From contig CAXNJO010000004.1 of the NCBI GenBank assembly GCA_964202905.1, positions 96,001 through 160,000 of the forward strand: a stretch of 64,000 bases of DNA, written 5' to 3'. How positions within the stretch are numbered: position 1 is the stretch's first letter; every line of letters begins with the position of its first letter. The notes under the pieces were generated by a model. The model was given only the letters and a program-made list of their open reading frames with translations, was not told the DNA's origin and ran no database searches. Shown one piece after another: positions 40,463 through 60,965 of this stretch. The stretch is from Polyangiales bacterium (GTDB taxonomy: Bacteria > Myxococcota_A > Polyangia > Polyangiales > JADJQN01). The position numbers and the translations under genes were made by a program.

Positions 40463-41872
40463 TCACTCGGCTGCGCTGGAAGCCGCCGCCGCAGGTGCCG
40501 CGCTGCGGGCCGGAGCCTGCTCGTCCAATTGTGTGCGTGCTAGTCGCGCGCGCGCCGCGTACGTGGGCGAGCGTTCGGCTCGCGCCAGCCAGGAGCGCGC
40601 CCGCGTGGGATCCCCAACCCGTCGGTAGAGTTCGGCAAGCTCGAGCATCGCCTCCGGGGCTCGGTCGTACGAGGGGTGCCCCGACAACAGGGCCTCGTAG
40701 CCCGCGATGGCCGGCCGAATCGCGCCCGCGCGAGATTGACCTCGCGCTGCTGCGTGGAGCGCCGCCGGCGTCGTCGTGGACGGTGCAGGCGCTGCGGCCG
40801 GAACGGGCGCCGACGGGCTTGCCGATGTCGCGCTCGGCATCGCGCCGACGCCAGAGGGCGCAAGACGCGCCGGCGACACCGCGCGCCGCGAGGCCACCTC
40901 GGTGTCGAGCCGGGCCATCGGTGCCGCCGCCTCGCGGTCGAGGGCGGGCGTGGTCTGAGCGACGGGAGACGGGGCCGGGATGCCCGCCGAAGCGGAGTCG
41001 CTTGCCCGCGTGCGTACACCGCCGACCCCTTCGGTCGCGTCGGCGCGCTCCTCAGCCGCCGCGAGCGCCCCGGCGCCCCCCCCGCCGAGGGCGTCGGGGA
41101 GGGAGGGCTCCGCGCGCAGCGAGACCACAGAACGTGAGGCCTCCTGCGCGAGCGCGGCGGTCAGCTCGTCGTTGGCGTCCGGCGGGGGCAGGGCCGGAGC
41201 CGCCGTCACCGCGCCCGGGATGAGTGCCACCGCCGGTGGAGCCGCCGGGAGCAGCGCGGCGAGCGTATCTTCGACGGCCATTGCGCCGGTCGAAGCGGGC
41301 CGCGCCGGCGTTCTCTCCGGCATGACCTCGGCGGCGGGCTGGAGCCGATTCGTCCGGGCATCGATCCGCAAATCAAGCGGTGCCGCGGGCTCGAGCGCCG
41401 CTGACGGTCCTGCCTCATCCCCCGGATCCGCGTTCACGATCGCCCCGCCCGGCACCTGCGGGGACTGTCGAATCCCCGGCAGATAATAGAGGCCCACCCC
41501 GACCATCAACATCAGCACCATGGCCATGGCCACCTGTGGCCCGAGCACGAAGCCGGAGAGCCAGGCCATGAAGCGCGAGAACCCGTTCGACGCCTCGGCC
41601 CCCGGCGCCTGCGTGCCACCCACCGCGCCGACCTGCCGCGCCGCAGGCGCTCGGCCCGCGCGGACCCGAGCCATCACCGCGTCATGCACGTGTCGAGGCA
41701 CCGCCTCGACGGGCAACGCCTTTGCGAGCCGCATCCCGCCACTGATCCGCGCTGCCTGGGCGCGGCACGCTGCGCAGCCATCGACGTGCGCGCGCAGCGG
41801 GGCCGCGGCGTCCGCTTGCAGCGAACCACCGACCAGATCGAGGAGCTGGGACTGGACGATCTCGCAGTTCAT
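40463..41872 (-). CDS. ZAS anti-sigma factor with TM, disordered linker and C-terminal TPR
   Basis: MNC...HVDGCAAC zinc motif, TM, Pro/Ala-rich linker, TPR (AIAGYEALLSGHPSYDRAPEAMLELAELY); follows the ECF sigma gene. Confidence 0.78.
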   Translation of the reverse strand: MNCEIVQSQLLDLVGGSLQADAAAPLRAHVDGCAACRAQAARISGGMRLAKALPVEAVPRHVHDAVMARVRAGRAPAARQVGAVGGTQAPGAEASNGFSRFMAWLSGFVLGPQVAMAMVLMLMVGVGLYYLPGIRQSPQVPGGAIVNADPGDEAGPSAALEPAAPLDLRIDARTNRLQPAAEVMPERTPARPASTGAMAVEDTLAALLPAAPPAVALIPGAVTAAPALPPPDANDELTAALAQEASRSVVSLRAEPSLPDALGGGGAGALAAAEERADATEGVGGVRTRASDSASAGIPAPSPVAQTTPALDREAAAPMARLDTEVASRRAVSPARLAPSGVGAMPSATSASPSAPVPAAAPAPSTTTPAALHAAARGQSRAGAIRPAIAGYEALLSGHPSYDRAPEAMLELAELYRRVGDPTRARSWLARAERSPTYAARARLARTQLDEQAPARSAAPAAAASSAAE

Positions 41873-41923
41873 GACGACTTCTCACGGCCTGCGGCGGAAA
41901 GGCTGCCGCGACGCCATCGACCT

Positions 41924-42541
41924 CTATTCTTCCAGCTCAGCGACATAGTCCGCGTACTCGGCGAGCGCCTCCTGGAGACGCTCGAGCGCATACCGCATGC
42001 GACTCTTCACGGTGTTCTCCGGCACGCCCACGATCACGGCGATCTCCTTGAAGGGCATATGCTGCAACTCCCGCAGCAGGAACACCTCCCGCTGCTCGTC
42101 GGGCAAGGCCTCGACCGCCGCCGCGATGCGCGGTCGCAACTCCAGCGCGATCGTCGACCGGTCGGCCCCCGCGACGTGCCCCTCGGTGCGCTCGACCAGA
42201 GACGGGCCCTCGCCGTCCTCCCCGACCGTCGTCGCGTCGAGCGATTTGTGCCGTCGGAAGACCATCTTGCGGCTCTCGTCGATGCAGAGATTCCGCGCGA
42301 TGGTGTAGAGCCAGGTCGAGAACTTCGACTCTCCCTTGAACTCCCCGGCCCGCTCGACGACACGCAGGAAGGCATCCTGCAGCAACTCCTCCGACCGTGT
42401 CCGCTCGCCCACCTGACGCAGGATGAAGTTGAAAAGAGGCCGCTCGTAGCGGCTGAGCAACATCTCGAAGGCCTCCGCGTCCCCGGAACCGAACTGCCGC
42501 AGAAGCGTCTCGTCGGGCAGGTCGGATGCGCCCCGAGCCAC
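41924..42541 (-). CDS. ECF RNA polymerase sigma factor
   Basis: EELLQDAFLRV...SKFSTWLYTIARNLCID; LPDEQREVFLLRE..MPFKEIA..VGVPENTVKSRMRYA. Confidence 0.93.
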   Translation of the reverse strand: MARGASDLPDETLLRQFGSGDAEAFEMLLSRYERPLFNFILRQVGERTRSEELLQDAFLRVVERAGEFKGESKFSTWLYTIARNLCIDESRKMVFRRHKSLDATTVGEDGEGPSLVERTEGHVAGADRSTIALELRPRIAAAVEALPDEQREVFLLRELQHMPFKEIAVIVGVPENTVKSRMRYALERLQEALAEYADYVAELEE

Positions 42542-42760
42542 GTTCACGCCTCCCGGTAGCGCGGAACGCAATGTCCGACGCGAGGCAGAGAACCGATGCG
42601 GCGAGGTGCACGGGCGGTTCGACGCGCGACGGGGGACGTCGATCTGATGCGCTGCCTCCTCGGACGCATGGACCGCGCGAGTCTACCGGAACCGGTGTCG
42701 ACTGTCCCCGATTCCGATGGGACGCGCAGCGTCTCGTTCCCGCACCCCGGACGGCATGCG

Positions 42761-42789
42761 TTGACCGTCGCGGAGCGCCTTGCTATACC
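42761..42789 (+). promoter_or_regulatory. Putative sigma70 promoter of the Glt-like operon
   Basis: TTGACC-17 nt-TATACC with extended -10 TG. Confidence 0.65.
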
Positions 42790-42906: not shown

Positions 42907-43671
42907 ATGCGCAGGGTGATGGCGCTGTCGTTGACGGTCGCGCTCATGACAGTCGCCGCGGGCAGTGCCGCGGCGCAGGATTTAAGGCCCGACACGACCA
43001 CCGGTCCGGTCACTGGAACGACGGAGACCTCCCCCCCCGCACCGGGTTCGTCCCCCGCGGCGGAGGCCGCGGCGACTCCGATGGACGCCGGGACGTACGC
43101 CGTCCGACTGCGTGATCTCGAGCAGCGAATCAACGAGTTGAAGGAGCAGATCTTCCGCTCGAAAGCTCGCTTGTCGTTGCTCGCCGAGACGGTGCTCAGC
43201 GGCACGATCGCCGGCGCTCAAGCGACCCTCGTCCACGAGAACCGCATGTCGTCGTCGTACAAGCTCGTGAAGGCGGTGTACGCCCTCGACGGCGCGCCAA
43301 TCTTCAACAAGGCCGACGAAAACGGCGAGCTTGGCGAGCGCGAGACCTTCGACATCTACAACGGTGCGATCGTCCCCGGCGAGCACACGCTCACCGTGAA
43401 CCTCGAGTACCGCGGCCACGGCTACGGAATCTTCTCGTATCTTCAAGGCTACCGTTTCAAGGTCCGCTCCAACTACAGCTTCACGGCCCCTGAGGGGCGC
43501 GGCGTCACGATTCGCGTGGTCGGGTACGAGAAGGGTGGCCCCACGGCTCCCCTCGAGGAGCGTCCCGCCATTCGCTACATCGAGCGCGTCGTGAACCGGG
43601 GTGCAGCGGCAGACAGCGAGGGGGCCGCCTCTCCGAGCACGCCTCCCGCGAGCGGCGGGGGCAACCCGTGA
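42907..43671 (+). CDS. Exported coiled-coil + Ig-like beta-domain protein, first gene of the Glt-like operon
   Basis: Signal peptide, coiled coil LRDLEQRINELKEQIFRSKARL, beta domain (IVPGEHTLTVNLEYRGHG); GGAG RBS. Confidence 0.8.
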   Translation: MRRVMALSLTVALMTVAAGSAAAQDLRPDTTTGPVTGTTETSPPAPGSSPAAEAAATPMDAGTYAVRLRDLEQRINELKEQIFRSKARLSLLAETVLSGTIAGAQATLVHENRMSSSYKLVKAVYALDGAPIFNKADENGELGERETFDIYNGAIVPGEHTLTVNLEYRGHGYGIFSYLQGYRFKVRSNYSFTAPEGRGVTIRVVGYEKGGPTAPLEERPAIRYIERVVNRGAAADSEGAASPSTPPASGGGNP

Positions 43672-46088
43672 TTCGGCCGCAGCAGCCACGCAAGCGGCTG
43701 CTCTCGACTGGGCTCACCGCGCTCCTCGCCACCCACACCGCTCTCGCGGGCGCGGTGTCGGGCGCAAGCCCGGCGCGAGCGCAGGACCTGGCAGCGATCA
43801 CCCGCCAGGTCACCCAGCTCGAAGCAGACGCACGCAATCTCTCCGCGATGCCCGTGCGGCGTAGCAGCCTGCGCGGGCCGACCTACGTCGAGGAGCGCCT
43901 CACCGACGGTGAGCTTTTCTACCGGCTCCACGACTACACGCGCGCCGCCATCATCTTCACCGACATCGTCGACAGCCACCCGCGACATCGGGCCTTTCCC
44001 GATGCGCTGTTCCTGCTCGCCGACTCGCTCTTTCGCGCCGGGGACGTCCTCGGCGCGAGGACGCGCTTCCGTCAGATCATCGACCGCGCTGACCAGCAGC
44101 CATTTCGTCCGTACGTCCAGCGAGCGCTCGGTCGCCTCATCGAAGTCGCCATCCAGACCCGGGACTTCGAGGGTGTGGAAGAACTCTTCCAGCGGATGAG
44201 TCGACTGCCCCCCTCGGAAATCGAGGCGGCGACGCAGTACTTCCGGGCCAAGTACCTCTACAACCGAGCCGTCCCCACGGACGAGGTGATGCGCGATGTG
44301 GCGGGCGCGACGAGCGTGCCGCAGGTCGATCAATCCGTTTTGGACGAAGCCCGGCAGGCCTTCGAGGCCGTTCAGGAGCGCAGCCCCTACTACCTTCAGG
44401 CGCGTTACTTCGTCGGCGTCATCTACACGCTCAAGGGTGAGTACCCTCAAGCGATTGACGCCTTCCGGAGGGTCCTTCGCGGCGCCGCGACGACACCCGA
44501 GCAGGAGGAGATCGTCGTCCTCACGCACGTCGCGCTCGGGCGACTCTTCTACGAAACCGATCGACTCGAGCAAGCCGTCGAGTCCTATCAGCAGGTTCCC
44601 CGCTCCTCGCCCCATTTCGACGTCGCGCTCTACGAGATCGCGTGGGTGCACATCCGGCAGGGCGATTCGACGCAAGCCGAACGCGCGCTCGAGGTCCTCA
44701 CCGTCGCGGCCCCTGACAGCCGCTTCATCCCTGACGGGAAGATCCTCCGGGGAAACCTCTTGCTTCGCAACGGACGCTTTGCCGACGCCAATACGGTGTT
44801 CCGCGAGGTCGCCCAGCAGTTTGGTCCCGTCCGACGTGAACTCGACGCGATGATCGCCACGCACGACGACCCGCGTGAACATTTCCGCGACCTCGTTCGC
44901 CGGAACATGGACAACTTCGACGCCAACGCGTTCCTTCCGCCCCTCGCCATCCGCTGGGCGCGGACCGAGGGCGACATGGACCGCGCGCTGGCGGTGCTCT
45001 CCGACCTCGGCGAGTGCCGCGCGCTCGTGCGCGATACGACCGCCCTGATCGGGCGACTGAACGCCGTGCTCAATTCGCCGAACCGCATCAGCGCGTTCGC
45101 CGACTTGACCGAGCAGCGACAATTGTCGATCTCCCAGCGCAACAAGGTCGCGCGCATTCGCCGTCAACTCATCGCGGCCGATGCGGTCGGCTCGGCCTCC
45201 GGGGAACTTGCCGAGGTGCGCGCCGAACGTCGGCGCGTCGAGGCACTCCTCGAGAACCTGCCGACGTCGGGCGAGGATTTCGAAGCCCGAAGCGAGCGCC
45301 TACTCAATCGCTACCGCGATCTCGACCGCGAGGCGCGCAACCTCGAGGTCGAACTCATGGGCATGGAAGCGCGGATTACCGCCACGATGCGCTATACGGC
45401 GGACACCGCGTCGGCCCGCGGTGACGCTGCGGGCGCGCAGGCTCTCGCGACTGAGCTACGCACGCAGCAGGAGGCGGTGACGGCGTATCGGGCCCAACTC
45501 GGTGAGGTGCACACGTTGATCGAGCGCGCGCGCCTCCAGGTCGGCATCGGGGACGAGCGGTACGCCCGCGATGGTCGCACCCGCGACGACTACGCCCGCC
45601 TTGTCGCCCGCGAGCGTGAGTTGCTGCGCCAGTCGGGAGCGGGAAACCGCGTGGCTCAAACCGAAGGGGTGTTTGCGAGGCTTGCGCGCATCGACGAAGT
45701 GCTCGACGGGAAGGACCGCGTGATCGATGACGTGGTCGACGAGCGCACCGCGGAGATCCGCGCCGTGATCGACGAGGAAACCCTCAAGGTCGACGGCTAC
45801 CGGAACCAGATGGCGGCCCTCGAGGGCGAGACCGTGGATGTGGTCGGCGAAGTGACGCTGGCCAACTTCACGCAGGTTCGGCAGCGGTTCTACGACCTGG
45901 TCCTGCGAGCGGACGTGGGACGCGTCGACATTGCCTGGGCGCAGCGTGAAGAGCACCGCGCTCGGATCGAGATGCTGACGCGTGAGCGCACGCGTGACAT
46001 GCAAGCGCTCGACGACGAGTTCCGCGACATCATGGACGAGGGGGGCACGTCCGCCGACGATGCTGCTCCGGCAGGGGGAGCACAGTGA
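43668..46088 (+). CDS. Exported TPR + coiled-coil protein (GltC-like)
   Basis: Signal peptide, many TPRs, long C-terminal coiled coil ending ADVGRVDIAW; GTGA-coupled. Confidence 0.75.
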   Translation: MIRPQQPRKRLLSTGLTALLATHTALAGAVSGASPARAQDLAAITRQVTQLEADARNLSAMPVRRSSLRGPTYVEERLTDGELFYRLHDYTRAAIIFTDIVDSHPRHRAFPDALFLLADSLFRAGDVLGARTRFRQIIDRADQQPFRPYVQRALGRLIEVAIQTRDFEGVEELFQRMSRLPPSEIEAATQYFRAKYLYNRAVPTDEVMRDVAGATSVPQVDQSVLDEARQAFEAVQERSPYYLQARYFVGVIYTLKGEYPQAIDAFRRVLRGAATTPEQEEIVVLTHVALGRLFYETDRLEQAVESYQQVPRSSPHFDVALYEIAWVHIRQGDSTQAERALEVLTVAAPDSRFIPDGKILRGNLLLRNGRFADANTVFREVAQQFGPVRRELDAMIATHDDPREHFRDLVRRNMDNFDANAFLPPLAIRWARTEGDMDRALAVLSDLGECRALVRDTTALIGRLNAVLNSPNRISAFADLTEQRQLSISQRNKVARIRRQLIAADAVGSASGELAEVRAERRRVEALLENLPTSGEDFEARSERLLNRYRDLDREARNLEVELMGMEARITATMRYTADTASARGDAAGAQALATELRTQQEAVTAYRAQLGEVHTLIERARLQVGIGDERYARDGRTRDDYARLVARERELLRQSGAGNRVAQTEGVFARLARIDEVLDGKDRVIDDVVDERTAEIRAVIDEETLKVDGYRNQMAALEGETVDVVGEVTLANFTQVRQRFYDLVLRADVGRVDIAWAQREEHRARIEMLTRERTRDMQALDDEFRDIMDEGGTSADDAAPAGGAQ

Positions 46089-49000
46089 ACGTGCTTGGAA
46101 CGCGAGCATCGCGGTCTGTCGCGCTGGGCGCGTGCGTCTGGCTTCTGGCCTCCGCGGCGCGTCCAGTACTCGCTCAAGACGTCGCGGACGCCGGTCCGGC
46201 AACGGTTCCAACCGCCTCGCAAGACTCCGCGGGCCTCGACGCTTCGACCGGCACAGACGGCGACGGTGCGGTGGAGGACGGCGGTCAGGTTCCTTGGGCC
46301 GCAGCATCGGACGTACCCGGCGCGCTTCCGGAGTTCCTGAACACGACCGACCGTCGCATTCAAGACGACCGGCCGGCACCCACTGCGGAGCAGGTCAACG
46401 CTCTCCGCGAGATGGAAGCCGAGGTTGGCCGTTTCGGCCTCGCCGGAACCGCTTACCGCGACGCCGTGGTCTCGATCGTTCGGCGTGAATACCTGCGGCA
46501 GCGTCGCGCTCGCGACGACGGCTACGCGCGCCAGATCCGGGAAGAGGAGCGACTCCAAAACGAGGCCCGCGACCGCGCGATCCGCCTGTTCGAGCGGTTC
46601 ATCGCCAACTACCCCGACGACCCGACCTACACGCCGGACGCCATGTTCCGGCTCGGCGAGCTCTACTACGAGCGCAGTGCGCTTCAGTTCCAGGCGGCGG
46701 TCGAAGCCGCCAACGCGCAGCGGGATGCTGCGCAGGCCTCCGGAGCCTCAGGGGACGAGATACCCGACCCCTCCAAGGATTTCAGCCCCACGATCGACCT
46801 CTATCGTCGTTTGGCGTCCAATTTCCCCGTCTACCGACGTATTGACGGCGTCTACTACCTGATTGGCTACTGCTTGGGCGAGATGAACCAGCCTGAGGAA
46901 GCGCGCCGCGCCTTCCTCGCGCTGGCCTGCTCGAATCACTTCTCCTTCTCTGGAGCGCCCTCGAGCCATGGGGCATCCGTGGAGGAGGAGGTCGATGGCG
47001 GCGCGCGTCATCCCTCCGAGACGCTCGATCGGGTCCCCGAACCCGCTGCCGACGAGGGGCCCTACGTCGATCCGTACGCCGGCTGCACGCCCATCTCCCC
47101 CCAGACGGAATTCCTCGGCGAAGTGTGGCTCCGCGTCGGGGAATATCACTTCGACAACGACTTCGGGCAGCACGGCCTCGATCGCGCAATCAGCGCGTAT
47201 TCGTACGTGCTCCGGTTGCCGGAAGACCGGAATTACAACCTCGCGCTCTACAAGATGGCGTGGTCGTTTTACCGGGCGAGCCGCTACCCTGAAGCGCTCA
47301 AGAACTTCGCCGACCTCGTGCAGTGGTCGGACGATGAGCAAGCCCGGACCGGGCGCGCGGGAACCGAGCTCCGCGGAGAGGCGATCCAGTACATCGCGAT
47401 CACGTTTGCGTATGACGACTGGAACGAGAACCAGACGCCCGACCCCACGGAGGGCCAGCCTACGGGCTTCATGCGCGTCCAGGATCCGCAACTCCTCCCG
47501 CAAGACCGGCCCTGGACTGAAGATGTGTTCTTCCAGCTCGGTCAGGTTTACTTCGACGAGGCCAAGTATCTGCAGGCCATCGAAGTTTGGAAGCATCTGC
47601 TCCTGAAGTGGCCGCGCAGCGCACGGGCTCCCGAGGTCACCAACCTGATCGCGCGCGCCTACGCGCGGAACAATGACCAAGAGCGCGAGCGTGAAATGCT
47701 TCGCCAGCTCGTCAACTACGGCGTAGGTACCGACTGGTACAACAGCAACACCGAGCACCCCGCGGAGCAGCGCCAGGCGGAGCAATTGGCCGAGTTCGCC
47801 GTCATTCGCGCGGCGCTGCAGGACCACGCTGAAGCGCAGCGGCTTCGTTCGCAGTGCGTGACGAACCGTGATCCGGCGTTGTGTCGCGCCGCGCAAGAGA
47901 AGTACAGACTCGCGGCGGCAGGCTACCGTGCCTACATCGAGCGATACCCGAACAATCCGCAGGCCTACGAGCTCAATTACAACCTCGCGGACACCCTCTA
48001 TTGGTCGGAGGACTACGAGAGCGCTGCGCGTGAGTACGCGACGGTCCGGGATTCGAACCTCGACGACACGCATTTGTCGGAGGCCGCGCGCCGCGTCGTC
48101 GAATCGCTCAAGCGGCTCCTCGATGCTGCCGAAGCCAACCGGCAGGTCGAATTGCGGACCGAGCCTCCCGCACCTGCGGGTGCCCCGCCGGTGGTAACTC
48201 CCACCGCGATGCCTCCCCTCGTTCAGCGGCTCGCGCAAGCCCGCGAGATCTATCTTGCGCGAATCGACCCCCGCGCTGATCGCGAGCAGGTCCGCGACTC
48301 GTACGACTACAACAACACACTCTTGTTGTATGCCTACGGGTACTGGCCGCAGGCCCGCGAGCGGTTCACGCGCATCTTCGAAGAGCGCTGCGCCGGCCCC
48401 AACGCGAACGAGACCGGGCGCGTGTCGTGGATCAACCTCCGCAATATGGCCGTTGCACTTCAACAACCCGAGGAAGCGGAGCGGTTGTCCCAACTCCTGC
48501 TTGAGCGGCGCTGTACGTTCGCGTCGGACGGGACAGCCCCGGCCGCCAATGCCAACCTCGATTGCGCCCAGGCAGAGAACCGCGACGACCCGGTGTGCAT
48601 CGCGCAGGGTACCCTGCAGGCTGGGCAGTACCGCGTCGCCGTCAGCACCTTCAACCAGGCGCAGGGGGCCGCGGCCGGGGCTGAGCAGACGGCGCTGTAC
48701 GAACGCGCGGCGTCTCTCTTCGTCCGCGCGGTGAACAATGCGCCGAATGACCCGCAAGCCCCCATCGCGCTGGAGCAGGCCGCCATCGCCCTCCAGCGGA
48801 CGAACCGCTTTGAGAGCGCGGGGCGCATCTACCAGCGGATCATCGACGAGGTCGCAGCGCGACGCGGCGAGACCCCAGACGAGCAGGCTCGACTCGACCG
48901 AATCGTCTCCAATGCGTATTTCCAACTCGCGTACAGCGCGGGCCGGAACTTCGACTACGACCGCGCCATCACGAACTACCGTGTGCTCGCCGACTCCCCA

Positions 49001-51945: not shown

Positions 51946-52581
51946 TTGTTTCTTGCCGCGCAGATTGCGGTCGCCGTCGCCGCATCTGCGGTCGTGGTGA
52001 AGCACGTCAGGGTGTTGTTTTTCGTTGCACCGCTCGAGGCGGTCCCCTTCTTACGAGCGCTCCAGCGCTGCCTCGACGTCGGTGACCTCCGCGGCGCGCG
52101 GGCGCTCGCCGAGGCTGGCGGGCCCGGTTGGATTGCACACGCGGCCGCCGCCAGCCTGGCCGCGTGGCCCGATCCAGGTGCAGTGGGGCAGCGCCTCGAA
52201 GAGGTCCTCGCCGATCGGCGTGACGACGCGCGCGCTGCAACTCGTCCGTTGCGGGCGGTTGCAAGCCTTTCATCGAGCCTTGGGATGTTGTTCGCGATCT
52301 TGAGTTTGAACGGGGTCGGTGGGGCTTCCGGTGGGCTGCTCGCGCTCGAGGCCGGGCTCGAGCAGTCGCTCGCGGTCGGGCGTGCGGTCGCGTGTGTCGC
52401 GACGGGCGGCGCCACTTCACTCATCGTGCTCGCGGCAACGGGCGCGCTTCGGCGGCAATCGCGACGACTCCTTGAGGACCTGTCCCGTTTGTCGTCGGCG
52501 CTTTCAGTGCATGTCTCGGGCCTCTCCTCCTACCCTCCTGTGATCGCGCGAGCGCAGTCCGCCTCGCAATCTTCCGGGTGA
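51946..52581 (+). CDS. Degenerate MotA/TolQ/ExbB (AglR-like) membrane protein
   Basis: TTG start; 3-TM layout with F...LQ..L..GDL..A..L loop and LEEVL....R....LRAVASLSSSLGMLFAI; channel motifs eroded. Confidence 0.55.
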   Translation: MFLAAQIAVAVAASAVVVKHVRVLFFVAPLEAVPFLRALQRCLDVGDLRGARALAEAGGPGWIAHAAAASLAAWPDPGAVGQRLEEVLADRRDDARAATRPLRAVASLSSSLGMLFAILSLNGVGGASGGLLALEAGLEQSLAVGRAVACVATGGATSLIVLAATGALRRQSRRLLEDLSRLSSALSVHVSGLSSYPPVIARAQSASQSSG

Positions 52582-52586: not shown

Positions 52587-52616
52587 TAGACCGGTGCCGC
52601 GCGAGGGTGCTAGTGT
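52587..52616 (+). promoter_or_regulatory. Possible internal promoter for the gltG-like gene
   Basis: TAGACC-18 nt-TAGTGT with extended TG. Confidence 0.4.
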
Positions 52617-52755
52617 CCCGCCGCCTCGCGATGCTGAACGCTCGGGGGGAACTTTTCACGGAACGGGGCGTCTCTGGTGAGGTTGGTGCTGACGAGCGAC
52701 GCACCGACTCCAACCCGGATGGCTCCCACCCACACGACGAAGAGGTAGACGACCG

Positions 52756-54249
52756 ATGACCACGGGCAATCAGCCTCCGCAGCAGGGACAAGGGCAGCCG
52801 CAGCGCGGACGTCCTGGGGCGATGACGATGGCCATGCAGGCCGTCAACGTGCCGACATCCGGCCCGAAGGTCCTGCGGATCGGTGTCATCCAGGGCGGGA
52901 AGATCGTCGAGGAGCGGATCATCCGCCGCCGCGAGACGGTGTCCGTCGGCAGCTCCGAGCGGAACCACTTCATCGTCCAGACAGAGAAGCTCCCGGCACG
53001 CTTCGAGCTCTTCCAGTTGGTCGGCTCCGACTACATCCTCAATTTCACTGAGGATATGCGCGGTCGCGTCGGCCTTCCCGCTGGCGTGCAGGACCTCGGC
53101 CAGCTCCGCGCGTCGGGCGCGGCGCGCAACGCCGGTGCGTATTGGCAGGTCAAGCTCAACGACAATTCGCGCGGCAAGGTCACGCTCGGCGACACGACGC
53201 TGCTCTTCCAGTTTGTGAGTCCTCCCCCCGTCCAGCCCCGTCCACAACTACCGGCCGCCGCGCGTGGTGGGTTCGTGAAGGGGATCGACTGGGTCTTCAC
53301 GGCGTTCATCACGTTCTCCTTCATGATGCACTTCGGGTTCATCATCTATTTGGAGAACGCCGACTGGCCTCTCGAGTCTGGGATCGGCGAGTTGCCGCCG
53401 GAGTTGGCCCGCATGATTCTGGACGAGCCTCCTCCCCCGCCCGTCGAGGAGACGCCGACCGAGGAGGTCACGGACGCCCCGGTGGAGGAGGCCGTCGCCG
53501 AGACCCCGCAGCCGACGCGCGCGCCGGCCCAAAACCAAGCTTCGAATGCGAACGCGCAAAACTCCGGGGCGGACCAAGCCAGTGCCGCCGAGGCCACTGC
53601 GCGCGTGGCGGAAGAAGCCGCCGCGGCTGCCGAGATGCTCCTCGTGGGTGCTCTTGGCGAAGGCGCAGACAGCGCGTTTCGTGACGTCCTGGCAGGCGGC
53701 GCCGTCACGGGCAACGCCAGCGATGTCCTCGCGCAGGCGAATGGCGTGGGCGTAGCCTCCGGCGCCGCCGGCGGCGCTTTGCGCACGCGCACTGGCGGCG
53801 GCAACGGTTCGGGTGAGGGCGGCGATCTTGGCGGTCTCGCGGCTGCGGGCGGAGCGGGCGCGACGGTGCAACAGGCCGAGGGGCAACAGGTGGTCGAGGT
53901 GCGTGTGCGCGGGAACCTCCGTCTCGACGATGGCGAGGCCATCGGGGGCGACGGTGATTTCGATGCGCGGCAGGTCGTCTCCCTCATCCGTCAGCGCCTG
54001 TCGGCCATCCGCGCCTGCTACGAGCGGGAGCTTCGACGCAACCCGCAGCTCTCGGGCAAGGTGACCGTCGACTTCACCATCCAGACGACCGGCTCTGTAT
54101 CGAACGTGCGAGCCTCGGAGAACACGACGGGAGACGATGCGGTCGCCTCGTGCGTGACCGGTGTCGTGCAGCGCTTCCGCTGGAACCCGGGTCCGGAGGG
54201 CGGCTCAGTCACGTTCTCCTATCCGTTCGTGTTCGCCCCGCAGAACTAG
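52756..54249 (+). CDS. GltG/PglI-like protein (FHA-like domain, TM, linker, TonB_C)
   Basis: LRIGVIQGGKIVEE N-terminal beta domain, TM with SxxxH (SFMMH), Pro/Glu/Gly linker, IRACYERELRRNPQLSGKV...CV...SYPFVF C-terminus. Confidence 0.85.
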   Translation: MTTGNQPPQQGQGQPQRGRPGAMTMAMQAVNVPTSGPKVLRIGVIQGGKIVEERIIRRRETVSVGSSERNHFIVQTEKLPARFELFQLVGSDYILNFTEDMRGRVGLPAGVQDLGQLRASGAARNAGAYWQVKLNDNSRGKVTLGDTTLLFQFVSPPPVQPRPQLPAAARGGFVKGIDWVFTAFITFSFMMHFGFIIYLENADWPLESGIGELPPELARMILDEPPPPPVEETPTEEVTDAPVEEAVAETPQPTRAPAQNQASNANAQNSGADQASAAEATARVAEEAAAAAEMLLVGALGEGADSAFRDVLAGGAVTGNASDVLAQANGVGVASGAAGGALRTRTGGGNGSGEGGDLGGLAAAGGAGATVQQAEGQQVVEVRVRGNLRLDDGEAIGGDGDFDARQVVSLIRQRLSAIRACYERELRRNPQLSGKVTVDFTIQTTGSVSNVRASENTTGDDAVASCVTGVVQRFRWNPGPEGGSVTFSYPFVFAPQN

Positions 54250-54280
54250 GCACGGCGAGGACACGGTCTCCCGCACGACG

Positions 54281-54309
54281 ACGGCGCCCCTCGGGGCGCC
54301 GTTTTCGTT
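54281..54309 (+). terminator. Rho-independent terminator
   Basis: ACGGCGCCC-CTCG-GGGCGCCGT stem-loop followed by TTTCGTT, about 30 nt after the gltG-like stop. Confidence 0.75.
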
Positions 54310-54357
54310 GGTGCCGCGCTTGCGTCGCAAGGACACTCAGTCCAACGTTCCGCCGCC

Positions 54358-55317
54358 ATGATCGAAGGAAAGCGCATTTTCGTCACCGGTGGCGCCGGGT
54401 TCATCGGCTCCACGCTCATCGGTCGGCTCATCGCGCGCAACGAGATCGTCGCCTTCGACAACCTCGCACGCAATACGCTTCAGCATCAGGCGTTCGCCGC
54501 GCACCCGAATTTGCGGCTCGTCGAAGGGGACGTCCTCGACACGCGCGCCCTCGCCGAAGCGATGGGTGACGCGCAGATCGTGGTGCATTGCGCAGCGATC
54601 GCGGGCATCGACACGGTGATCAAGAGCCCGGTCATGACCATGCGGGTCAACATGGTCGGCTCCGCCAACGTCCTCGAGGCCGCGTCGCGCCTCTCGGCAT
54701 GCGAGCGAGTGGTCTGTTTTTCCACCAGCGAGGTTTTCGGCTCGCATGCCTTCCGGTCGAGCGAGACGGACAAACCTGTCATGGGAGTCGTCGGCGAGGC
54801 GAGATGGACGTATGCCGTTTCGAAGCTCGCGGAGGAGCATCTCGCGATGGCGTACTGGAGCGAGCGGAGCTTGCCCTGCGCCGTCGTTCGCCCCTTCAAC
54901 GTCTACGGACCGGGCCAAGTGGGAGAAGGCGCGCTGCGCACGTTCGTCCAGCGGGCGCTCCGTGACGAACCGATCGAGATTCACGGGGACGGGACGCAGA
55001 TTCGCGCCTGGTGCTACGTCGACGACATGGTCGATGCCACGATGCTGGCGATGGAGCACCCCGCGGCGATCGGTCAGTCGTTCAACGTCGGCAATCAGCG
55101 CGCCGTGGTCACCATCTACGGCCTTGCAAACGCGGTCGTGCGTGTTCTCGGGAGCAAGTCGGAGATCCGCTTCATCCGCAAGGATTACGCGGACGTCGAA
55201 TTGCGTGTACCCCACGTCGCAAAAGCTCGCGATCTCCTGGGTTTCGAGGCGAAGGTCGACCTCGAGGAGGGGCTGCGACGTACGGCGGACTACTACCGCC
55301 TCCATCTTTCACGCTGA
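54358..55317 (+). CDS. NAD-dependent nucleotide-sugar epimerase/dehydratase
   Basis: [35 protein letters not shown]. Confidence 0.92.
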
Positions 55318-55345
55318 AGCTGCCGCTCTCCGGGAGGCCCGTCGC

Positions 55346-55966
55346 ATGTCCGCTGCCGCGTCCGGCGAACGCAACTCCGGGCAAGACCCGAGCGTGACGG
55401 TCCACCCGACCGCCGTCATCGACGCCGACGTCGCGATCGGCCAGGGAACGCGCGTGTGGCACTTTGTCCACGTGTCTTCGGGCGCGCGAATCGGCGCGCG
55501 GTGCTCGCTTGGGCAGAACGTGTTTGTCGCCCGCGGTGTCCCGATCGGCGACGGCGTGAAGATCCAGAACAACGTGAGTTTGTTCGAAGGGGTCGAGATC
55601 TCGGACGACGTCTTTCTCGGTCCGAGCTGCGTCTTCACGAACGTGAACAACCCGCGTGCCTTCGTGGAGCGCAAGAGCGAGTTTCGCAGGACGCTCGTCG
55701 AGCGGGGCGCCAGCATCGGCGCCAACGCGGTGATCGTGTGCGGTCACACCATCGGCGCCTACGCCTTCGTCGGTGCTGGGGCCGTCGTGACGCGTGACGT
55801 ACCGGCGTATGCGGTGGTGGTGGGCAACCCGGCCCGTCGAATTGGTTGGATGTGTCGCTGCGGGCAGCGACTCCCTGCGCGTGACACATCGCGGTGCGAC
55901 GCGTGCGGGCTCGCCTACGTCGTCTCCGAAGGTCAGTGTCGCGAGAGCGAGGACGGTGCCTCGTGA
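55346..55966 (+). CDS. Hexapeptide-repeat N-acetyltransferase (WbpD/WlbB-like)
   Basis: IGQGTRVWHFVHV...GQNV...VKIQNNVS...GPSCVFTNVNNPR...GNPARRIGWMCRCG. Confidence 0.9.
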   Translation: MSAAASGERNSGQDPSVTVHPTAVIDADVAIGQGTRVWHFVHVSSGARIGARCSLGQNVFVARGVPIGDGVKIQNNVSLFEGVEISDDVFLGPSCVFTNVNNPRAFVERKSEFRRTLVERGASIGANAVIVCGHTIGAYAFVGAGAVVTRDVPAYAVVVGNPARRIGWMCRCGQRLPARDTSRCDACGLAYVVSEGQCRESEDGAS

Positions 55967-57090
55967 CCCGCGCCGTGCCGATCCCCTTGCTCGATCTCGC
56001 TGCGCAGAATCACCCTCTGCTTCCTGCGTTCCGCGAGGCGTTCGACCGCGTAGCAACTCGGGGGCAGTTCATCCTCGGACCCGAGGTCGAGGCATTCGAG
56101 CAAGCCATCGCGGCTTATCTCGGCGTCAAACACGCGGTCGGGGTCTCCAGCGGCACCGACGCGGTCCTCGTCGCCCTGATGGCGCTCGGGATTGGGCCCG
56201 GCGACGAGGTGATCACGACGCCGTTCAGCTTCTTCGCGACCGCTGGGTGTGTGGCCCGGGTCGGTGCGGTGCCGGTCTTTGTCGATGTCGACCCTGACAC
56301 CTTCAACCTCGATGTGTCACGCGTTGCGCAGGCGATCACCGTCCGTACCCGCGCGATCATGCCGGTGCACCTCTTCGGGCAACCGTGCGCGATGGCCCGC
56401 TTGCAGGCGGTGGCCTGTGAGCACGGTCTGCCGATCATCGAGGATGCGGCACAGGCGATCGGGGCGCGGACGGCGATCGGACCGGTGGGCGGTCTGGGGG
56501 CGCTCGGCGCGTTCAGCTTCTTCCCTTCGAAGAACCTGGGCGCGTTCGGCGATGCGGGGCTGGTCACTTCGAACGACGAGGCGCTCGCGGCGCGTGTTCG
56601 TCTGCTCCGCTCGCACGGCGCGGAACCGAAGTACTACAACAGCGCGATCGGCGGCAATTTCCGCCTCGATGCTCTTCAGGCGGCGATCCTCGCCGTAAAA
56701 CTGCCGCATCTCGAAGTCTGGGCGAAGGGGAGAGCGGAGAACGCCGCGCGCTACACCGAGGCGTTCTCGGCTGCGGGACTGAGAGCGGAGCAGCTGACGC
56801 TGCCTCGTGCGGTCGAGCCCGGCCACGTCTGGAACCAATACACGATCCGCTCGTCCCGTCGCGATGCCCTGCGTGCGCATCTCACGTCCGCTGGGATCGG
56901 CCACGAGATCTACTACCCCGTGCCACTCCACCGGCAGACCTGCTTTCGCACGCTCGGTATCGACGAGGGCCGCTTCCCTGAAGCGGAGCGCTGCGCACGC
57001 GAGGCCCTGTCGCTCCCGCTCTTCCCCGAACTCGGGGATGTGCGGCGCGCGCGCGTCGTCGCAGAAGTTCTGGCAGGTCTCGCGGGCTGA
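55963..57090 (+). CDS. DegT/DnrJ/StrS aminotransferase (WbpE-like)
   Basis: SSGTDA, PVHLFGQ, EDAAQA, SFFPSKNLGAFGDAG, NFRLDALQAA. Confidence 0.92.
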   Translation: MTRAVPIPLLDLAAQNHPLLPAFREAFDRVATRGQFILGPEVEAFEQAIAAYLGVKHAVGVSSGTDAVLVALMALGIGPGDEVITTPFSFFATAGCVARVGAVPVFVDVDPDTFNLDVSRVAQAITVRTRAIMPVHLFGQPCAMARLQAVACEHGLPIIEDAAQAIGARTAIGPVGGLGALGAFSFFPSKNLGAFGDAGLVTSNDEALAARVRLLRSHGAEPKYYNSAIGGNFRLDALQAAILAVKLPHLEVWAKGRAENAARYTEAFSAAGLRAEQLTLPRAVEPGHVWNQYTIRSSRRDALRAHLTSAGIGHEIYYPVPLHRQTCFRTLGIDEGRFPEAERCAREALSLPLFPELGDVRRARVVAEVLAGLAG

Positions 57091-57163
57091 CCGCGACGTC
57101 GAACGAGCAGCGGACCTTCGCGCAACAGACCCACACACCGTTCACCCGTGTCCGGGGCCGTCG

Positions 57164-57191
57164 TTGACACCCCGTACCCGATCGATATACT
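57164..57191 (+). promoter_or_regulatory. Near-consensus sigma70 promoter
   Basis: TTGACA-16 nt-TATACT, then GGGAGG RBS before ATG 57215. Confidence 0.75.
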
Positions 57192-57214
57192 CCGACCGCC
57201 TCACGGGAGGGTCC

Positions 57215-57832
57215 ATGTTCGCTTCGCGCTTTCAGACGGTGGTCCGCCAACTCGGCGGTACCCGATACGCGGTCACTCTCGCGCTCGCTGCGCTTCTTGC
57301 GGGTGGTGGGATTGCGCTCGCGCAGGACCGCAGCGGGTCTTCGCCAGAGGACGATGCGTCCGCGGACGTGGAGCGCCGCGCCAACCTCACCGGTCCCGAG
57401 CAGCTCGCCGAAGCCGAGCGGATCGAAACGCGCGCCAACCAGATCAGCCGACGCGTTCAGCAGATGCTCGACGAGGCGCGACGCGAGCGAGATATCCTAC
57501 GCGTGACCTGCCTCAACGACAAACTCACCCAAATCAACGCCAACGCGCGCACGACGAGCACGCGCGGCGATGCCCTCCGCGAGGCCGTTCAGATGAATGA
57601 CGACGCGCGGCGGGATCACGAGTTCACCGTGCTCACGGTGCTCGGCCAGAAGTTCCGGACCCTCGAGCAGGAAGCCAACCAGTGTGTGGGCCAGGACATC
57701 TTTGAGACGGGGACCACCCGGGTCGAGACGAGCATCGATCCGGCGACCCCGGACGAGGATACCTCCGCGGTGCTTTCTTACCCGGAGGTTCCCGTACCCT
57801 TCATTCCTCCGCCTGCCAGCGTGTCGATGTAG
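57215..57832 (+). CDS. Exported alpha-helical coiled-coil protein
   Basis: Signal peptide (IALA-Q); LDEARRERDILRVTCLNDKL...HEF...LEQEANQCVG with two Cys; acidic/Pro tail. Confidence 0.8.
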   Translation: MFASRFQTVVRQLGGTRYAVTLALAALLAGGGIALAQDRSGSSPEDDASADVERRANLTGPEQLAEAERIETRANQISRRVQQMLDEARRERDILRVTCLNDKLTQINANARTTSTRGDALREAVQMNDDARRDHEFTVLTVLGQKFRTLEQEANQCVGQDIFETGTTRVETSIDPATPDEDTSAVLSYPEVPVPFIPPPASVSM

Positions 57833-57916
57833 CCGTTCACTACTCTCATCGTCATTGAAAGCAGCGTTCAGGATGGGGCGAAGTCGGGTCCCCAACACTT
57901 CGGAGATCCCCGGGAC

Positions 57917-59293
57917 ATGCGCTTGAGCAACGTTCGCGTGCTGGCTGGACTGGCCGCCGCCATCACCAGCCTGACGGTCGTCCAGTCCGTAACCGCCCAA
58001 GATTGGCTCGCTGACCGGAAGCGGTCGGAGGGGGCCGGAATCCGCGTGGGTGATTTCGAACTTCATCCCGGGGTCGGGGTGGAGGTGGGTTACGACTCCA
58101 ACGTCTTTTTCTCGGACGGGAGTGCGACGAGCGCGGTGCCGGTGGCGTCTCCAATCTTGCGTGTGACCCCACACTTGAGTTTCTCGACGCTTTCCGCCAC
58201 CCGCGAGGCCGAGGGCGAGGCGCGAGAAGGGGCTGGTGCGGGTGCGCCCACAGTGCAGTTCCGAGGCGGAATCTCTGCGTCGTACTACGCGTTTTTCGCG
58301 GACGAGGCACGGAACAACGTCGGGCTCGACGGCGACCTCAATCTCGTGATTCTCCCGGATCGGCCTTTTTCCATCACGCTTCACGAGCGCTTCACGCGCG
58401 TCGTCCGGCCCTTCACGGAGCAGCGCAGCATCGGCGGTTCCGATAGGCGCCTCGATTTCGGCCGAAATGAGAACGATGCGGGCGTGGACTTTTCCTTCGG
58501 AACGCCGGGCCGTGTGCTCGCTGGAACAGCGGGTTACTCCCTCGCGGTCGGCTTCTTCGACGGGGAAGACTTCCAGTTCGCGAATAGCGTGACTCACAAC
58601 TTCCGCGCCGGTGCCAGCTTCCGATTCCTCCCGCAAACCGCCCTCGTGTACGACTTCGAGGGCCAGTACCGGGTCTACCCGTCCTTCGCGCCCGGGACAT
58701 CGCCGACGCTCTTGTCGAACGGGTTCAACCTTCGGACGCGCGTCGGAATCAACGGTGCCATCACGACCCGCCTTTCGCTCAGCGCGATGGTCGGTTACGG
58801 CGCTGGTTGGTTCGATGCTCGGGACGACTTTGACTCGGTGGTCGGTCAGGCGGAGCTCCGCTGGCAAGCGACTTCGAATTTCCGCCTCTCTCTGGGCTAC
58901 GACCGCAACTTCCGGCCGTCCTACGTGGGGAATTTCATGCGTGCCGACCGCGCCTACGCCAGCGCCCAACTTCTGCTTGCCGGCTCGTTCATGCTGGGCG
59001 CGGAGGCCTCCCTCTCCCTCCTCGACTTCGGTGTGCCCGTGCTTGGGAGCGACGTGCGTACCGCGCTGGGTTCGAATCCCGATGGTTCCGTGTCGCGGTC
59101 CGATGTCCGGCTCTCCGGGTCGATTTTTGCGGAGTATCGGTTCACGAACTGGCTTGGCGTCAACGCGACCCTCCGCTACACCGGCGACTACACAGACTAT
59201 CGCTACATCATCACGGACGCCGCTGGAACCGTGCTCGACCCGGCCGGATACAGCAAGTTCGAGGGCTGGTTGGGCGTGCGGGCATTCTACTGA
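57917..59293 (+). CDS. Outer-membrane beta-barrel, putative polysaccharide secretion porin (EpsX/ExoB/Wzp-like)
   Basis: Signal peptide, GIRVGDFELHPGV.VEVGYDSNV start, amphipathic beta strands, C-terminal aromatic (GVRAFY); immediately upstream of the OPX gene. Confidence 0.8.
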   Translation: MRLSNVRVLAGLAAAITSLTVVQSVTAQDWLADRKRSEGAGIRVGDFELHPGVGVEVGYDSNVFFSDGSATSAVPVASPILRVTPHLSFSTLSATREAEGEAREGAGAGAPTVQFRGGISASYYAFFADEARNNVGLDGDLNLVILPDRPFSITLHERFTRVVRPFTEQRSIGGSDRRLDFGRNENDAGVDFSFGTPGRVLAGTAGYSLAVGFFDGEDFQFANSVTHNFRAGASFRFLPQTALVYDFEGQYRVYPSFAPGTSPTLLSNGFNLRTRVGINGAITTRLSLSAMVGYGAGWFDARDDFDSVVGQAELRWQATSNFRLSLGYDRNFRPSYVGNFMRADRAYASAQLLLAGSFMLGAEASLSLLDFGVPVLGSDVRTALGSNPDGSVSRSDVRLSGSIFAEYRFTNWLGVNATLRYTGDYTDYRYIITDAAGTVLDPAGYSKFEGWLGVRAFY

Positions 59294-59322
59294 CCGAACG
59301 CGTTCGTTGGTTCGCGCATCCC

Positions 59323-60006
59323 ATGGCCATGCGAGAATGCGCGTTCTCTAACGCCCCGCGACGCGGGTTCCCGGGCCCGAGGCGTCTCCCTCGCGCCGTC
59401 CATGTCGGCGCTCCGCGGATCGTGGTCGCGGTGTATGCGTTGGTGTGGTTAGTGGTGCTGGTGGGCTGCGCCGGTAGCGCGAGGCCACTCCGGCCGCCTC
59501 CCAACAACGGCAACGACACCTCTCTCGGCTCGGGGGACGTGTTCGACGTTCGGATTTTCGGGGAGCAGGAGCTCTCCGCGAGTTACCGGGTCGCTGAGGA
59601 CGGGACCATCGACTTCCCGCTCATCGGTCGCATCGAGGTCGTGGGCCTCGAGCCGCCGGCGACCGCGGACCTCTTGCGCGACCGGCTGCGCGATGGGCGT
59701 TTTATGCTCGATCCGCAGGTCTCGGTTTTCGTCCGCGAGTACAACTCGAAGCGAGTGAGCGTGATGGGCGCGGTCTCGCGACCGGGGACGTTCCCCATGT
59801 CGAGTGGTTTGACTGTGGTGCAGGCGATCAGTCTGGCGGGCGGGTTCACGCCACTGGCGATGCGCAGCGGGCCGACGATCACACGCCAGGAGAATGGGCA
59901 TGCGCGCAGCTTCCGCGTGCCGGTCGACGAGATCGTGCAGGGGCGGGCTGAAGACGTACTCCTTCAGGCCGGCGACATCGTCTACGTTCCGGAGCGGGTG
60001 TTCTGA
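59323..60006 (+). CDS. Short OPX (Wza-like) polysaccharide export lipoprotein
   Basis: Lipobox LVGC, Poly_export LGSGDVFDV...DGTIDFPLIG, one SLBB domain, ends GDIVYVPERVF with no OM helix. True start probably downstream. Confidence 0.9.
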   Translation: MAMRECAFSNAPRRGFPGPRRLPRAVHVGAPRIVVAVYALVWLVVLVGCAGSARPLRPPPNNGNDTSLGSGDVFDVRIFGEQELSASYRVAEDGTIDFPLIGRIEVVGLEPPATADLLRDRLRDGRFMLDPQVSVFVREYNSKRVSVMGAVSRPGTFPMSSGLTVVQAISLAGGFTPLAMRSGPTITRQENGHARSFRVPVDEIVQGRAEDVLLQAGDIVYVPERVF

Positions 60007-60008
60007 GG

Positions 60009-60965
60009 ATGGTGGGGGCGCTTTCGAATGCAGATCGGGTTTATGTCGCGGGGCACACCGGGCTGGTGGGGTCGGCGATCGTTCGTGCGCTGCGCGCGCG
60101 CGGGCACACGGACCTCGTGCTCCGTACCAGCCGAGAGGCCGACCTCCGGGAGCGCGCAGCCGTAGACGGCCTCTTCGCCGCCGAACGACCCACGGTCGTG
60201 ATCGTCGCAGCGGCGAAGGTGGGCGGGATCCTCGCGAACACCGAGCGGCCCGCGGAGTTTCTCTACGACAACCTCCTGATCGCGAGCCACGTGATCGACG
60301 CGGCGTACCGTGCCGGCGTGCGTCGGTTGTTGTTTCTCGGCAGCTCGTGCATCTATCCGAAGTTTGCCGAGCAGCCGATCCGCGAAGAAGCGCTGCTCGA
60401 AGGAGCGCTGGAGCCGACGAACGAGTGGTATGCGATCGCGAAGATCGCCGGGCTCAAGCTGTGCGCGGCGTACCGTCGTCAGTACGGTTTCGACGCCATC
60501 TCGGCAATGCCCACGAACCTCTACGGTCAAGGCGACAACTTCGACCTCCACAACTCGCACGTCCTGCCTGCGCTCATCCGAAAGTTCCACGAGGCGAAGC
60601 GCGACGGCCGGAGGCATGTCGAGGTTTGGGGGACGGGAGCCCCGCGGCGCGAGTTCCTGCACGCGGATGACCTGGCGGATGCGTGTCTGTTCCTGCTCGA
60701 CCGCTACGACGGGGAGCTCCCGATCAACGTGGGCACCGGTCGCGACCTGACGATCGGCGAGCTCGCCGCGCTGGTCGCGCGCGTGGTGGGATTTGCCGGG
60801 GAGGTCGTGTTCGACCGGAGCAAACCGGACGGGACCCCCCGCAAGCTCTTGGATGTGTCGCGGCTGCATGCCCTCGGTTGGGAGAGTCGGGTCACGCTCG
60901 AAGAGGGGATTCGCGCCACGTACCGCTGGTATTGCGACCAACTCGCGGAGTCCGGGCAGGCCTGA
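60009..60965 (+). CDS. fcl: GDP-L-fucose synthase
   Basis: VAGHTGLVGSA, AAKVGGI, LGSSCIYPK, YAIAK, SHVLPALIRK, WGTG.PRREFLH. Confidence 0.95.
   Translation: MVGALSNADRVYVAGHTGLVGSAIVRALRARGHTDLVLRTSREADLRERAAVDGLFAAERPTVVIVAAAKVGGILANTERPAEFLYDNLLIASHVIDAAYRAGVRRLLFLGSSCIYPKFAEQPIREEALLEGALEPTNEWYAIAKIAGLKLCAAYRRQYGFDAISAMPTNLYGQGDNFDLHNSHVLPALIRKFHEAKRDGRRHVEVWGTGAPRREFLHADDLADACLFLLDRYDGELPINVGTGRDLTIGELAALVARVVGFAGEVVFDRSKPDGTPRKLLDVSRLHALGWESRVTLEEGIRATYRWYCDQLAESGQA

Follow-up and report, generated by a model that had tools for sequence, protein, structure and literature searches.

Two trans-envelope machines of one homologous family are described in Myxococcus xanthus: the gliding machine Agl-Glt (paralogue groups G1/G2) and Agl-Nfs (G3), which moves the spore-coat polymer after its secretion and so provides a precedent for a Glt paralogue that moves polysaccharide. 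A further paralogue, G4, was listed as MXAN_1919-1923 (447, 490, 1111, 809 aa) in the supplement of Luciano 2011, where its function was given as unknown (PMC3169522), and an eLife table places MXAN_1915-1917, 1919 and 1921-1924 on one strand in that order. The translocon of the biosurfactant polysaccharide (BPS) pairs the barrel WzpB with the outer-membrane polysaccharide export (OPX) lipoprotein WzaB (PMC9603273, PMC12819527), and two papers call wzaB orphan-like or place it outside a polysaccharide cluster. We describe a stretch of 64,000 nucleotides from a Polyangiales bacterium (G000:C4:96001-160000, hereafter the window; positions count from its first letter unless a contig is named) in which a G4-type cluster of Glt-like genes stands upstream of a barrel and an OPX of the WzpB/WzaB type. 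Judging by gene order, protein lengths and trees, this locus is orthologous to M. xanthus G4 (MXAN_1919-1924) together with MXAN_1917, wzpB and wzaB, and the linkage, which amounts to G4 plus wzpB-wzaB, is real and deeply conserved. The reading that we prefer, with somewhat less than even confidence, is that the G4 paralogue beside this exit pore forms an accessory machine, powered by a motor of the M2 type, which would act on the exported polymer and not in gliding.

A G4-Type Cluster Distinct from Gliding Glt and Nfs

The plus strand from 42907 to 60965 carries, in this order, ccIg, GltC', GltD', GltE', GltF', a TolQ-like gene, GltG', an epimerase, an acetyltransferase, an aminotransferase, cc2, the barrel, the short OPX and fcl (Table 1). 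All of the genes that a first-pass annotation of this DNA had named are present at their place; its start at 40463, however, belongs to a minus-strand anti-sigma/ECF pair that it had left undescribed. Signal peptides, lipoboxes (GltE', OPX) and the single transmembrane (TM) helix of GltG' were taken from the sequence and hydropathy. GltC' matches NF033756 (E 3e-30, 106 bits, cut-off 450), GltE' matches NF033758 (E 2e-28, 99 bits, cut-off 225), GltF' matches NF033764 (18 bits, cut-off 90) and GltG' matches NF033760 (E 3e-47, 162 bits, cut-off 650) as well as TonB_C, so that none reaches the equivalog cut-off of these NCBIfam models of the gliding machine. The gliding-type cluster of the same genome also stays below them (GltG 454 of 650, GltC 273 of 450), and the decision between gliding and G4 identity is therefore carried by the trees, as is the homology of GltD', for which a TPR match only was obtained.

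GltG' aligns with residues 207-640 of the gliding GltG (E 7.5e-37) and spans profile positions 179-647 only, which indicates that the N-terminal FHA domain is absent; the central FHA domain and the TM helix are present. In the gliding GltG the former binds GltI and the latter two are predicted to touch AglR (PMC11761067). The predicted structure of GltC' is all-helical (pLDDT 86). ccIg is the first gene in 20/20 loci and agrees with MXAN_1924 in position and length at L132; no family was found for it in Pfam, NCBIfam or PDB sequences, and the ESM Atlas gives only unnamed Myxococcota clusters. Local duplications were noticed of ccIg (L009), TolQ (L059), gltF'-gltG' (L234) and cc2, which flanks the barrel on both sides in L238.

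The genome holds a second gltC-D-E-F-G cluster at C4:467-476 kb, and the identical gene order speaks for placing the canonical gliding cluster of this organism in the window. That second cluster, however, beats the one in the window on the gliding models (GltG 454 vs 162 bits, GltC 273 vs 107), carries a full FHA and lies 7 kb from gltA/B-like genes. TIGR04565 matches occur at C4:483-485 kb and on C6 and none in the window, in agreement with the earlier statement that no GltA/B-type genes are found there (no separate search was made for GltH); the genome does have gltA/B-like genes, but their place is beside the other, gliding-type cluster. In a concatenated GltC+D+E+G tree the window, all barrel-linked clusters and the Myxococcaceae G4 form one clade (27/54 rows, FastTree 100), which is recovered in a second tree of the same proteins (17/35 rows, IQ-TREE SH-aLRT 100, 19 rows of the FastTree set being left out); both trees were rooted on G5 and flagged for uneven amino-acid composition, and DK1622 is represented in them by Myxococcus sp. 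Y35, Corallococcus and Archangium loci. The C4:467-476 kb cluster groups with G1 in both. The window proteins do not branch with NfsC-G either, and the NfsA/B/H barrels are not carried by the locus. The phylogeny that the first-pass annotation had called for thus places these proteins with neither canonical gliding Glt nor Nfs. On the trees the locus is of the G4 type, neither gliding Glt (G1/G2) nor Nfs (G3), and the canonical gliding cluster is a reading that they refute and to which we give practically no credence.

A short open reading frame that by eye resembles a fragment of a group II intron reverse transcriptase lies just after the gliding-type gltG (G000:C4:465857-466414), and a third GltG-like gene stands alone at G000:C1:55993-57486, with no C, D or E neighbours. 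The guanine-cytosine (GC) content falls from ~73% to 66% over window positions 42000-64000, and a similar dip was seen at the gliding-type cluster (C4:460-480 kb). Horizontal transfer as the cause of the low GC at third codon positions (GC3 0.71-0.87 vs a genome median of 0.94) was set aside because the gliding-type cluster is also low (GC3 0.83-0.88) and both clusters share their nearest relatives.

The Barrel, the OPX and their Counterparts in Myxococcus

The OPX (Poly_export and SLBB, 227 aa, invariant Cys49) ends at its SLBB domain with no pore-forming tail, has WzaB as its best PDB match (9N9A, E 1e-46) and is the only one that a profile search finds in this genome. A profile of the window barrel family finds a 421-aa gene beside wzaB in Myxococcus at ~190-210 bits, a length that equals that of MXAN_1916; no close relative of the barrel with a solved structure was found. 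cc2, whose relatives carry the names Sandaracinus/Sandaracinaceae (54-60% identity), returned generic three-helix bundles only in a fold search (best Z 11.6, rmsd 2.9, 108 aligned, 6% identity), and a complex prediction of cc2, the barrel and GltC' residues 1-400 (score 0.02, mark 0.32) counts neither way.

Myxococcus sp. Y35 has the genes arranged as ccIg(234)-C'(809)-D'(1112)-E'-F'-G'(447)-small gene-cc2(203)-barrel(421)-OPX(204). The identity with the M. xanthus genes comes from gene order and length, the M. xanthus locus fetched (L094) stopping just upstream of the barrel. In Myxococcaceae (L132:5061-5550, L062, L128) a gene of ~150 aa, cyclic-nucleotide-binding by eye, lies between gltG' and cc2 at the position of MXAN_1918.

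In the literature searched, which excluded subscription papers, MXAN_1922 is named in the main text of Luciano 2011 only, MXAN_1917, 1918, 1919, 1921 and 1923 in none, and MXAN_1920 and MXAN_1924 in no main text searched; MXAN_3003-3005 appear in two papers. The accessible text of the two WzpB papers (PMC9603273, PMC12819527) contains neither "Glt" nor a mention of cc2 or the G4 neighbourhood, and a concept search of the open literature returned nothing. The components themselves are known, but neither the unit that they form nor the assignment of its motor appears in the open papers searched. The first-pass annotation missed the known G4 identity, the likely M2-type motor in trans and the promoter of the cc2-barrel-OPX unit.

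Conservation of the Linkage

Linkage was counted by hand wherever GltD' or GltG' lay upstream of the barrel on the same strand and within 16 kb of it. From a phylum sample of 150 genomes, 97 matched the window barrel and 19 more gave a strong profile match (E<1e-50), while 19 with weaker barrel matches and 15 with no match were left out of the count; the class/order search of this sample did not reach Myxococcaceae. Among the 116 barrel-bearing genomes, which are kin and not independent trials, 97 show the linkage, 16 are unlinked, 2 are cut by contig ends and 1 has a weak match. A motif from the OPX additionally fetched 68 named loci (one a chance match with no OPX), and of the 49 named Myxococcales loci that reach 3.5 kb or more upstream, 45 show GltG' there; among the remaining four is one linked across an insert of ~12 kb. 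The adjacency persists across some 30 family-level groups, whereas each of motor, OPX and Wzc has left the locus in several lineages. The OPX does not follow the barrel in 13/41 linked loci (one more ends at a contig edge), and several genomes with no OPX after the barrel hold a strong OPX elsewhere. cc2 remains beside the barrel even where G4 is separated, and no outer-membrane barrel other than the WzpB-type one was found in the mapped clusters. The synteny survey suggested earlier therefore bears out an OPX/barrel linkage conserved across the phylum and in Myxococcus, matching the BPS locus.

The unlinked genomes are 12 of family f18 and G011, G096, G114 and G149, where the modules are separate. 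A first reading that f18 had lost G4 was wrong, since ccIg-C'-D'-E'-F' is kept elsewhere, apart from the barrel in 8/8 mapped genomes and lacking both GltG' and a motor at that site. Genomes with this split G4 (L207-L214, L153) carry elsewhere a tandem pair of GltG-like genes, each of ~600 aa.

Transcription Units and the Inserted Sugar Genes

The three GTGA overlaps reported earlier are real (ccIg/GltC' at 43668, GltC'/GltD' at 46085, GltD'/GltE' at 50065; at the third an ATG 2 bases past the stop is a possible true start). The whole plus-strand run, however, is divided by a hairpin after gltG' and a promoter before cc2. The hairpin (z -3.6 for an 81-base stretch) was not listed by a terminator scan. 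A promoter with at least 9/12 matches lies upstream of cc2 in 44/55 loci, compared with 4/60 control windows of coding DNA, a lenient control. On these predicted signals the run is at least two transcription units and not one operon; no transcription-start data were found in four supplements of PMC8844925.

The first-pass annotation had linked the amino-sugar genes to the system, but epimerase, WbpD or WbpE hits lie between gltG' and cc2 in 0/45 mapped loci, and in seven of ten closer relatives gltG' and cc2 are directly adjacent (one has a 9-kb insert including epimerases, and one has no G4 within 12 kb). In the tenth, which is of the same genus, WbpD-WbpE stand upstream of cc2 and the contig does not include gltG'. 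Among other lineages, 5 loci have genes of the epimerase/WbpD/WbpE type after the barrel. By this comparison the three genes of the window were inserted locally. The names WbpD and WbpE for the acetyltransferase and the aminotransferase are our assumption, as the searches give families only, and the genes presumably belong to a di-amino uronic acid pathway, which could serve the O-antigen instead. The polysaccharide cluster extends 30 kb past the window with an oxidoreductase, gmd, a Wzc-type protein (C4:182476), glycosyltransferases, an initiating transferase and two UDP-sugar dehydrogenases; the Wzx and Wzy candidates (C4:169285, 177284) have no Pfam hit at 1e-5.

The Motor

A TolQ-ExbD-ExbD triad lies between gltF' and gltG' in 27/45 mapped linked loci. 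The window has a TolQ-like gene at this position, as the first-pass annotation had noted, but not an intact TolQ: it gives no Pfam or NCBIfam hit (PF01618 is not matched), reaches 9.5 bits against the TolQ of homologous clusters, shows remote homology only in a profile match (P 42%, E 2.6e-4) and does not retain the GLLGT and TTAFG channel motifs. Similarly divergent genes occupy the TolQ position in same-order genomes. Its sequence marks the gene as a decayed remnant.

Two AglR-like triads are found in Myxococcaceae and likewise in this genome, one fitting AglRQS by length (245, 163 aa) and the other M2 (173, 193 aa). The M2-type motors, including the minus-strand triad on G000:C12, group with the in-cluster motors (88/96 for TolQ alone, 97/99 for the triad), and the AglRQS clade stands apart from them (100/100). 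At G000:C12:99285-104118 (L229) the M2-type and Agl-type triads stand back to back, and seven same-order genomes likewise have two AglR-like genes on opposite strands within ~2 kb. At L054:7700-14000 an inverted Agl-type triad and a second GltG-like gene interrupt a G4-type cluster between its gltE' and gltF'. A strict co-occurrence of G4 and a second motor was considered and fails in families f26 and f18.

In 5/10 genomes searched (G006, G024, G014, G071, G128), the only AglR-like TolQ (E<1e-40) sits in the G4-type cluster despite the presence of other Glt clusters, and one motor may serve several machines there. This observation favours a view of G4 as an additional or ancestral machine for surface motility or adhesion, which would use the secreted polymer as a track and whose motor would in some lineages also drive the gliding-type cluster. 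On the other hand, G4 cannot, as published, replace Glt in M. xanthus, the cluster has no GltA/B/H, adhesin or N-terminal FHA, and this genome has a separate gliding-type cluster and an Agl-type motor, all of which make such a machine very improbable.

Proposed Function and its Rivals

In the accessory machine that we tentatively prefer, every step from motor to barrel is something we infer from the Glt model. An M2-type triad (here G000:C12:99285-101176) would stand in for the motor that has decayed inside the cluster and would turn against GltG', which it would contact through the FHA-like domain and the TM helix. The periplasmic arm of GltG' would wrap GltD' and pull on the GltD'/E'/F'/C' scaffold, with GltF' as a possible bridge between the TonB domain and GltC'. 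The Glt model has GltC docking on barrels (PMC11761067), and by analogy GltC' would need an outer-membrane partner, and the sole barrel of the neighbourhood is WzpB, which may be reached through ccIg or cc2, the putative replacements of GltA/B/H as the link between scaffold and barrel. The machine, which would be proton-driven, would position, gate or release the exported polymer, probably a Wzx/Wzy-type product of the inserted sugar genes and of the 30 kb that follow the window, whose export itself would probably be independent of the machine. In favour of this proposal are the clade shared with Myxococcaceae G4, the conserved linkage, a barrel that remains with G4 in loci from which the OPX has moved, the grouping of in-cluster motors with M2, the FHA-TM part retained by GltG', the precedent of Nfs and the finding that MXAN_3003 of M2 showed no interaction with GltG or NfsG (PMC3858216).

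Several observations weigh against this proposal. A polar MXAN_1922 insertion and an MXAN_3004 deletion had no appreciable effect on motility (for MXAN_1922 in soft-agar insets; PMC3169522), and the wzpB deletion, unlike these mutants, causes a severe swarming defect. GltC takes up GltB through strands (PMC11761067), unlike GltC', whose model is strandless. The developmental expression group of MXAN_1916 differs from that of MXAN_1917 and 1919. The promoter upstream of cc2, the separate modules of the 16 unlinked genomes and the f18 arrangement also count here, as does a single AglR-like TolQ in f18 (12/12) and in f26 (3/3 searched), although G4 has no internal motor in f26. Additionally, an OPX-free role of the barrel for G4 failed as a candidate, because an OPX is present in 36/36 genomes tested. 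It is because the G4 and M2 mutants are motile and the wzpB mutant defective, 16 genomes are split and GltC' is strandless that the machine is placed as an accessory.

The main rival is conserved adjacency alone: G4 and M2 would do another envelope job (outer-membrane upkeep, import or protein handling) next to cc2-wzpB-wzaB, an independent unit in place since the phylum ancestor. The separate promoter and hairpin, the unlinked genomes, a junction that tolerates insertions of 3 to 12 kb and the G4 and M2 mutants with no motility phenotype (PMC3169522) all agree with it; an adjacency that has survived in some 30 family-level groups despite the relocations of motor, OPX and Wzc, and the fact that G4 has no barrel of its own, are harder to explain in this way. 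We regard it as a quite possible explanation.

Alternatively, G4 and its motor could energise export in a TonB-like manner, opening the barrel or pulling the polymer through it, and would then be needed for secretion. The TonB C-terminal domain of GltG' and the self-contained motor-to-barrel-to-OPX-to-Wzc clusters of several lineages (L015-L017, L036, L059, L060) are in favour of such a role, but swarming is normal in the G4 and M2 mutants, WzaB and WzpB bind each other directly and no motor figures in the published model of export (PMC12819527), so that we consider it improbable. The earlier proposal of a machine for surface-polymer positioning or energised export is thus partly supported, energised export being weakened by the wild-type-like motility of the published G4 and M2 mutants; the barrel would be a candidate for the outer-membrane anchor that the proposal included. 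A bolder form of the accessory-machine reading would unite G4, M2, MXAN_1917 and WzpB/WzaB in a single proton-driven trans-envelope machine with its grip on a polysaccharide porin. It would be a third Agl-Glt specialisation and the closest to a self-contained ancestor with its own motor and its own barrel, the gliding and spore-coat machines having arisen by swapping the porin for GltA/B/H; we find this attractive but on balance doubtful.

Features of the Window

The ECF/anti-sigma pair also flanks the cluster at several same-order loci. At lower coordinates, two convergent response regulators (35744-38596, sigma-54-type by eye) are followed by an aspartokinase-like gene (39197-40381), and at higher ones GT2, GT4 and methyltransferase genes (61071-63772, minus strand) face fcl and belong to the larger polysaccharide region.

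Table 1. Features of the locus, numbered from the first letter of the window.
Feature	Position	Strand	Basis
Anti-sigma factor: zf-HC2, one TM helix, C-terminal TPR; neighbour outside the conserved core	40463..41872	-	family searches
ECF sigma factor, divergent from the cluster	41924..42571	-	NF009166, 227 bits, cut-off 206
Promoter-like site TTGACC-17-TATACC, upstream of the G4 operon	42761..42789	+	read by eye; not listed by promoter scan
ccIg: exported, coiled-coil and beta-rich (putatively Ig-like); putative counterpart of MXAN_1924	42907..43671	+	position, length
GltC' (MXAN_1923 type): TPR and long helices	43668..46088	+	family match, model, trees
GltD' (MXAN_1922 type): large periplasmic TPR protein	46085..50068	+	TPR match, trees
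GltE' (MXAN_1921 type): TPR lipoprotein	50065..51645	+	family match; lipobox LAGC read from sequence
GltF' (MXAN_1920 type), 87 aa	51665..51928	+	NF033764, E 0.003; position conserved
Degenerate TolQ/AglR-like remnant, where other lineages carry the motor triad	51946..52581	+	weak profile matches
GltG' (MXAN_1919 type): one FHA-like domain, TM helix, TonB C-terminal domain; no N-terminal FHA	52756..54249	+	
Terminator-like hairpin after gltG'	54280..54309	+	10-pair stem
NAD-dependent epimerase/dehydratase, local insertion	54358..55317	+	family match
Hexapeptide N-acetyltransferase, WbpD-like, local insertion	55346..55966	+	family match
DegT-family aminotransferase, WbpE-like, local insertion	55963..57090	+	family match
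Predicted sigma-70-type promoter TTGACA-16-TATACT of the cc2-barrel-OPX unit	57164..57191	+	11/12 consensus matches
cc2 (MXAN_1917 type): exported three-helix bundle, two conserved cysteines	57215..57832	+	travels with barrel
Outer-membrane beta-barrel, WzpB orthologue by synteny	57917..59293	+	BBP2_2, E 8e-9
Class-3 (short) OPX lipoprotein, WzaB orthologue	59323..60006	+	Poly_export and SLBB; PDB match 9N9A
GDP-fucose synthase (fcl), local addition	60009..60965	+	497 bits, cut-off 500

Comparison with Known Systems

The linkage gives the orphan M. xanthus loci G4 and M2 a shared hypothesis that can be tested cheaply in a tractable model, and puts forward the unstudied MXAN_1917 and MXAN_1924 as candidate connectors. 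Contact of the machine with the porin would mean that Wzx/Wzy export has a motor-driven accessory missing from current models, and would supply a living intermediate for the proposed descent of gliding from a machine that handled polysaccharide; in the absence of such contact, the locus would be an ordinary new copy of known genes in a deeply conserved neighbourhood.

Compared with Agl-Glt and Agl-Nfs, the locus has homologous C, D, E, F and G subunits, a TonB C-terminal domain and a motor of the same family. It differs in forming its own clade, in having neither GltA/B/H, K, I and J nor the N-terminal FHA, in the additional ccIg and in a motor that would come from a different clade. M2 (MXAN_3003-3005) has in its group the minus-strand triad of G000:C12 and the in-cluster motors of other lineages; the counterpart in this genome lies outside the window. 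Like the WzpB/WzaB translocon of BPS (PMC9603273, PMC12819527), the window has a barrel followed by a short OPX lipoprotein with a terminal aromatic residue, and Wzc-type and initiating-transferase genes lie 20-30 kb downstream, as published for Sandaracinus. Unlike in the BPS system, the sugar genes of the window point to an amino-uronic acid and fucose, and the polymer therefore need not be BPS. The closest system is M. xanthus G4 (MXAN_1919-1923, with MXAN_1924 and MXAN_1917), which shares with the window its gene order, similar lengths, one clade in two trees, the adjoining wzpB-wzaB and the lack of GltA/B/H and of an N-terminal FHA. The window differs from it in keeping a TolQ remnant between gltF' and gltG', in holding three sugar genes where Myxococcus has one small gene (the MXAN_1918 position) and in being flanked by the ECF/anti-sigma pair.

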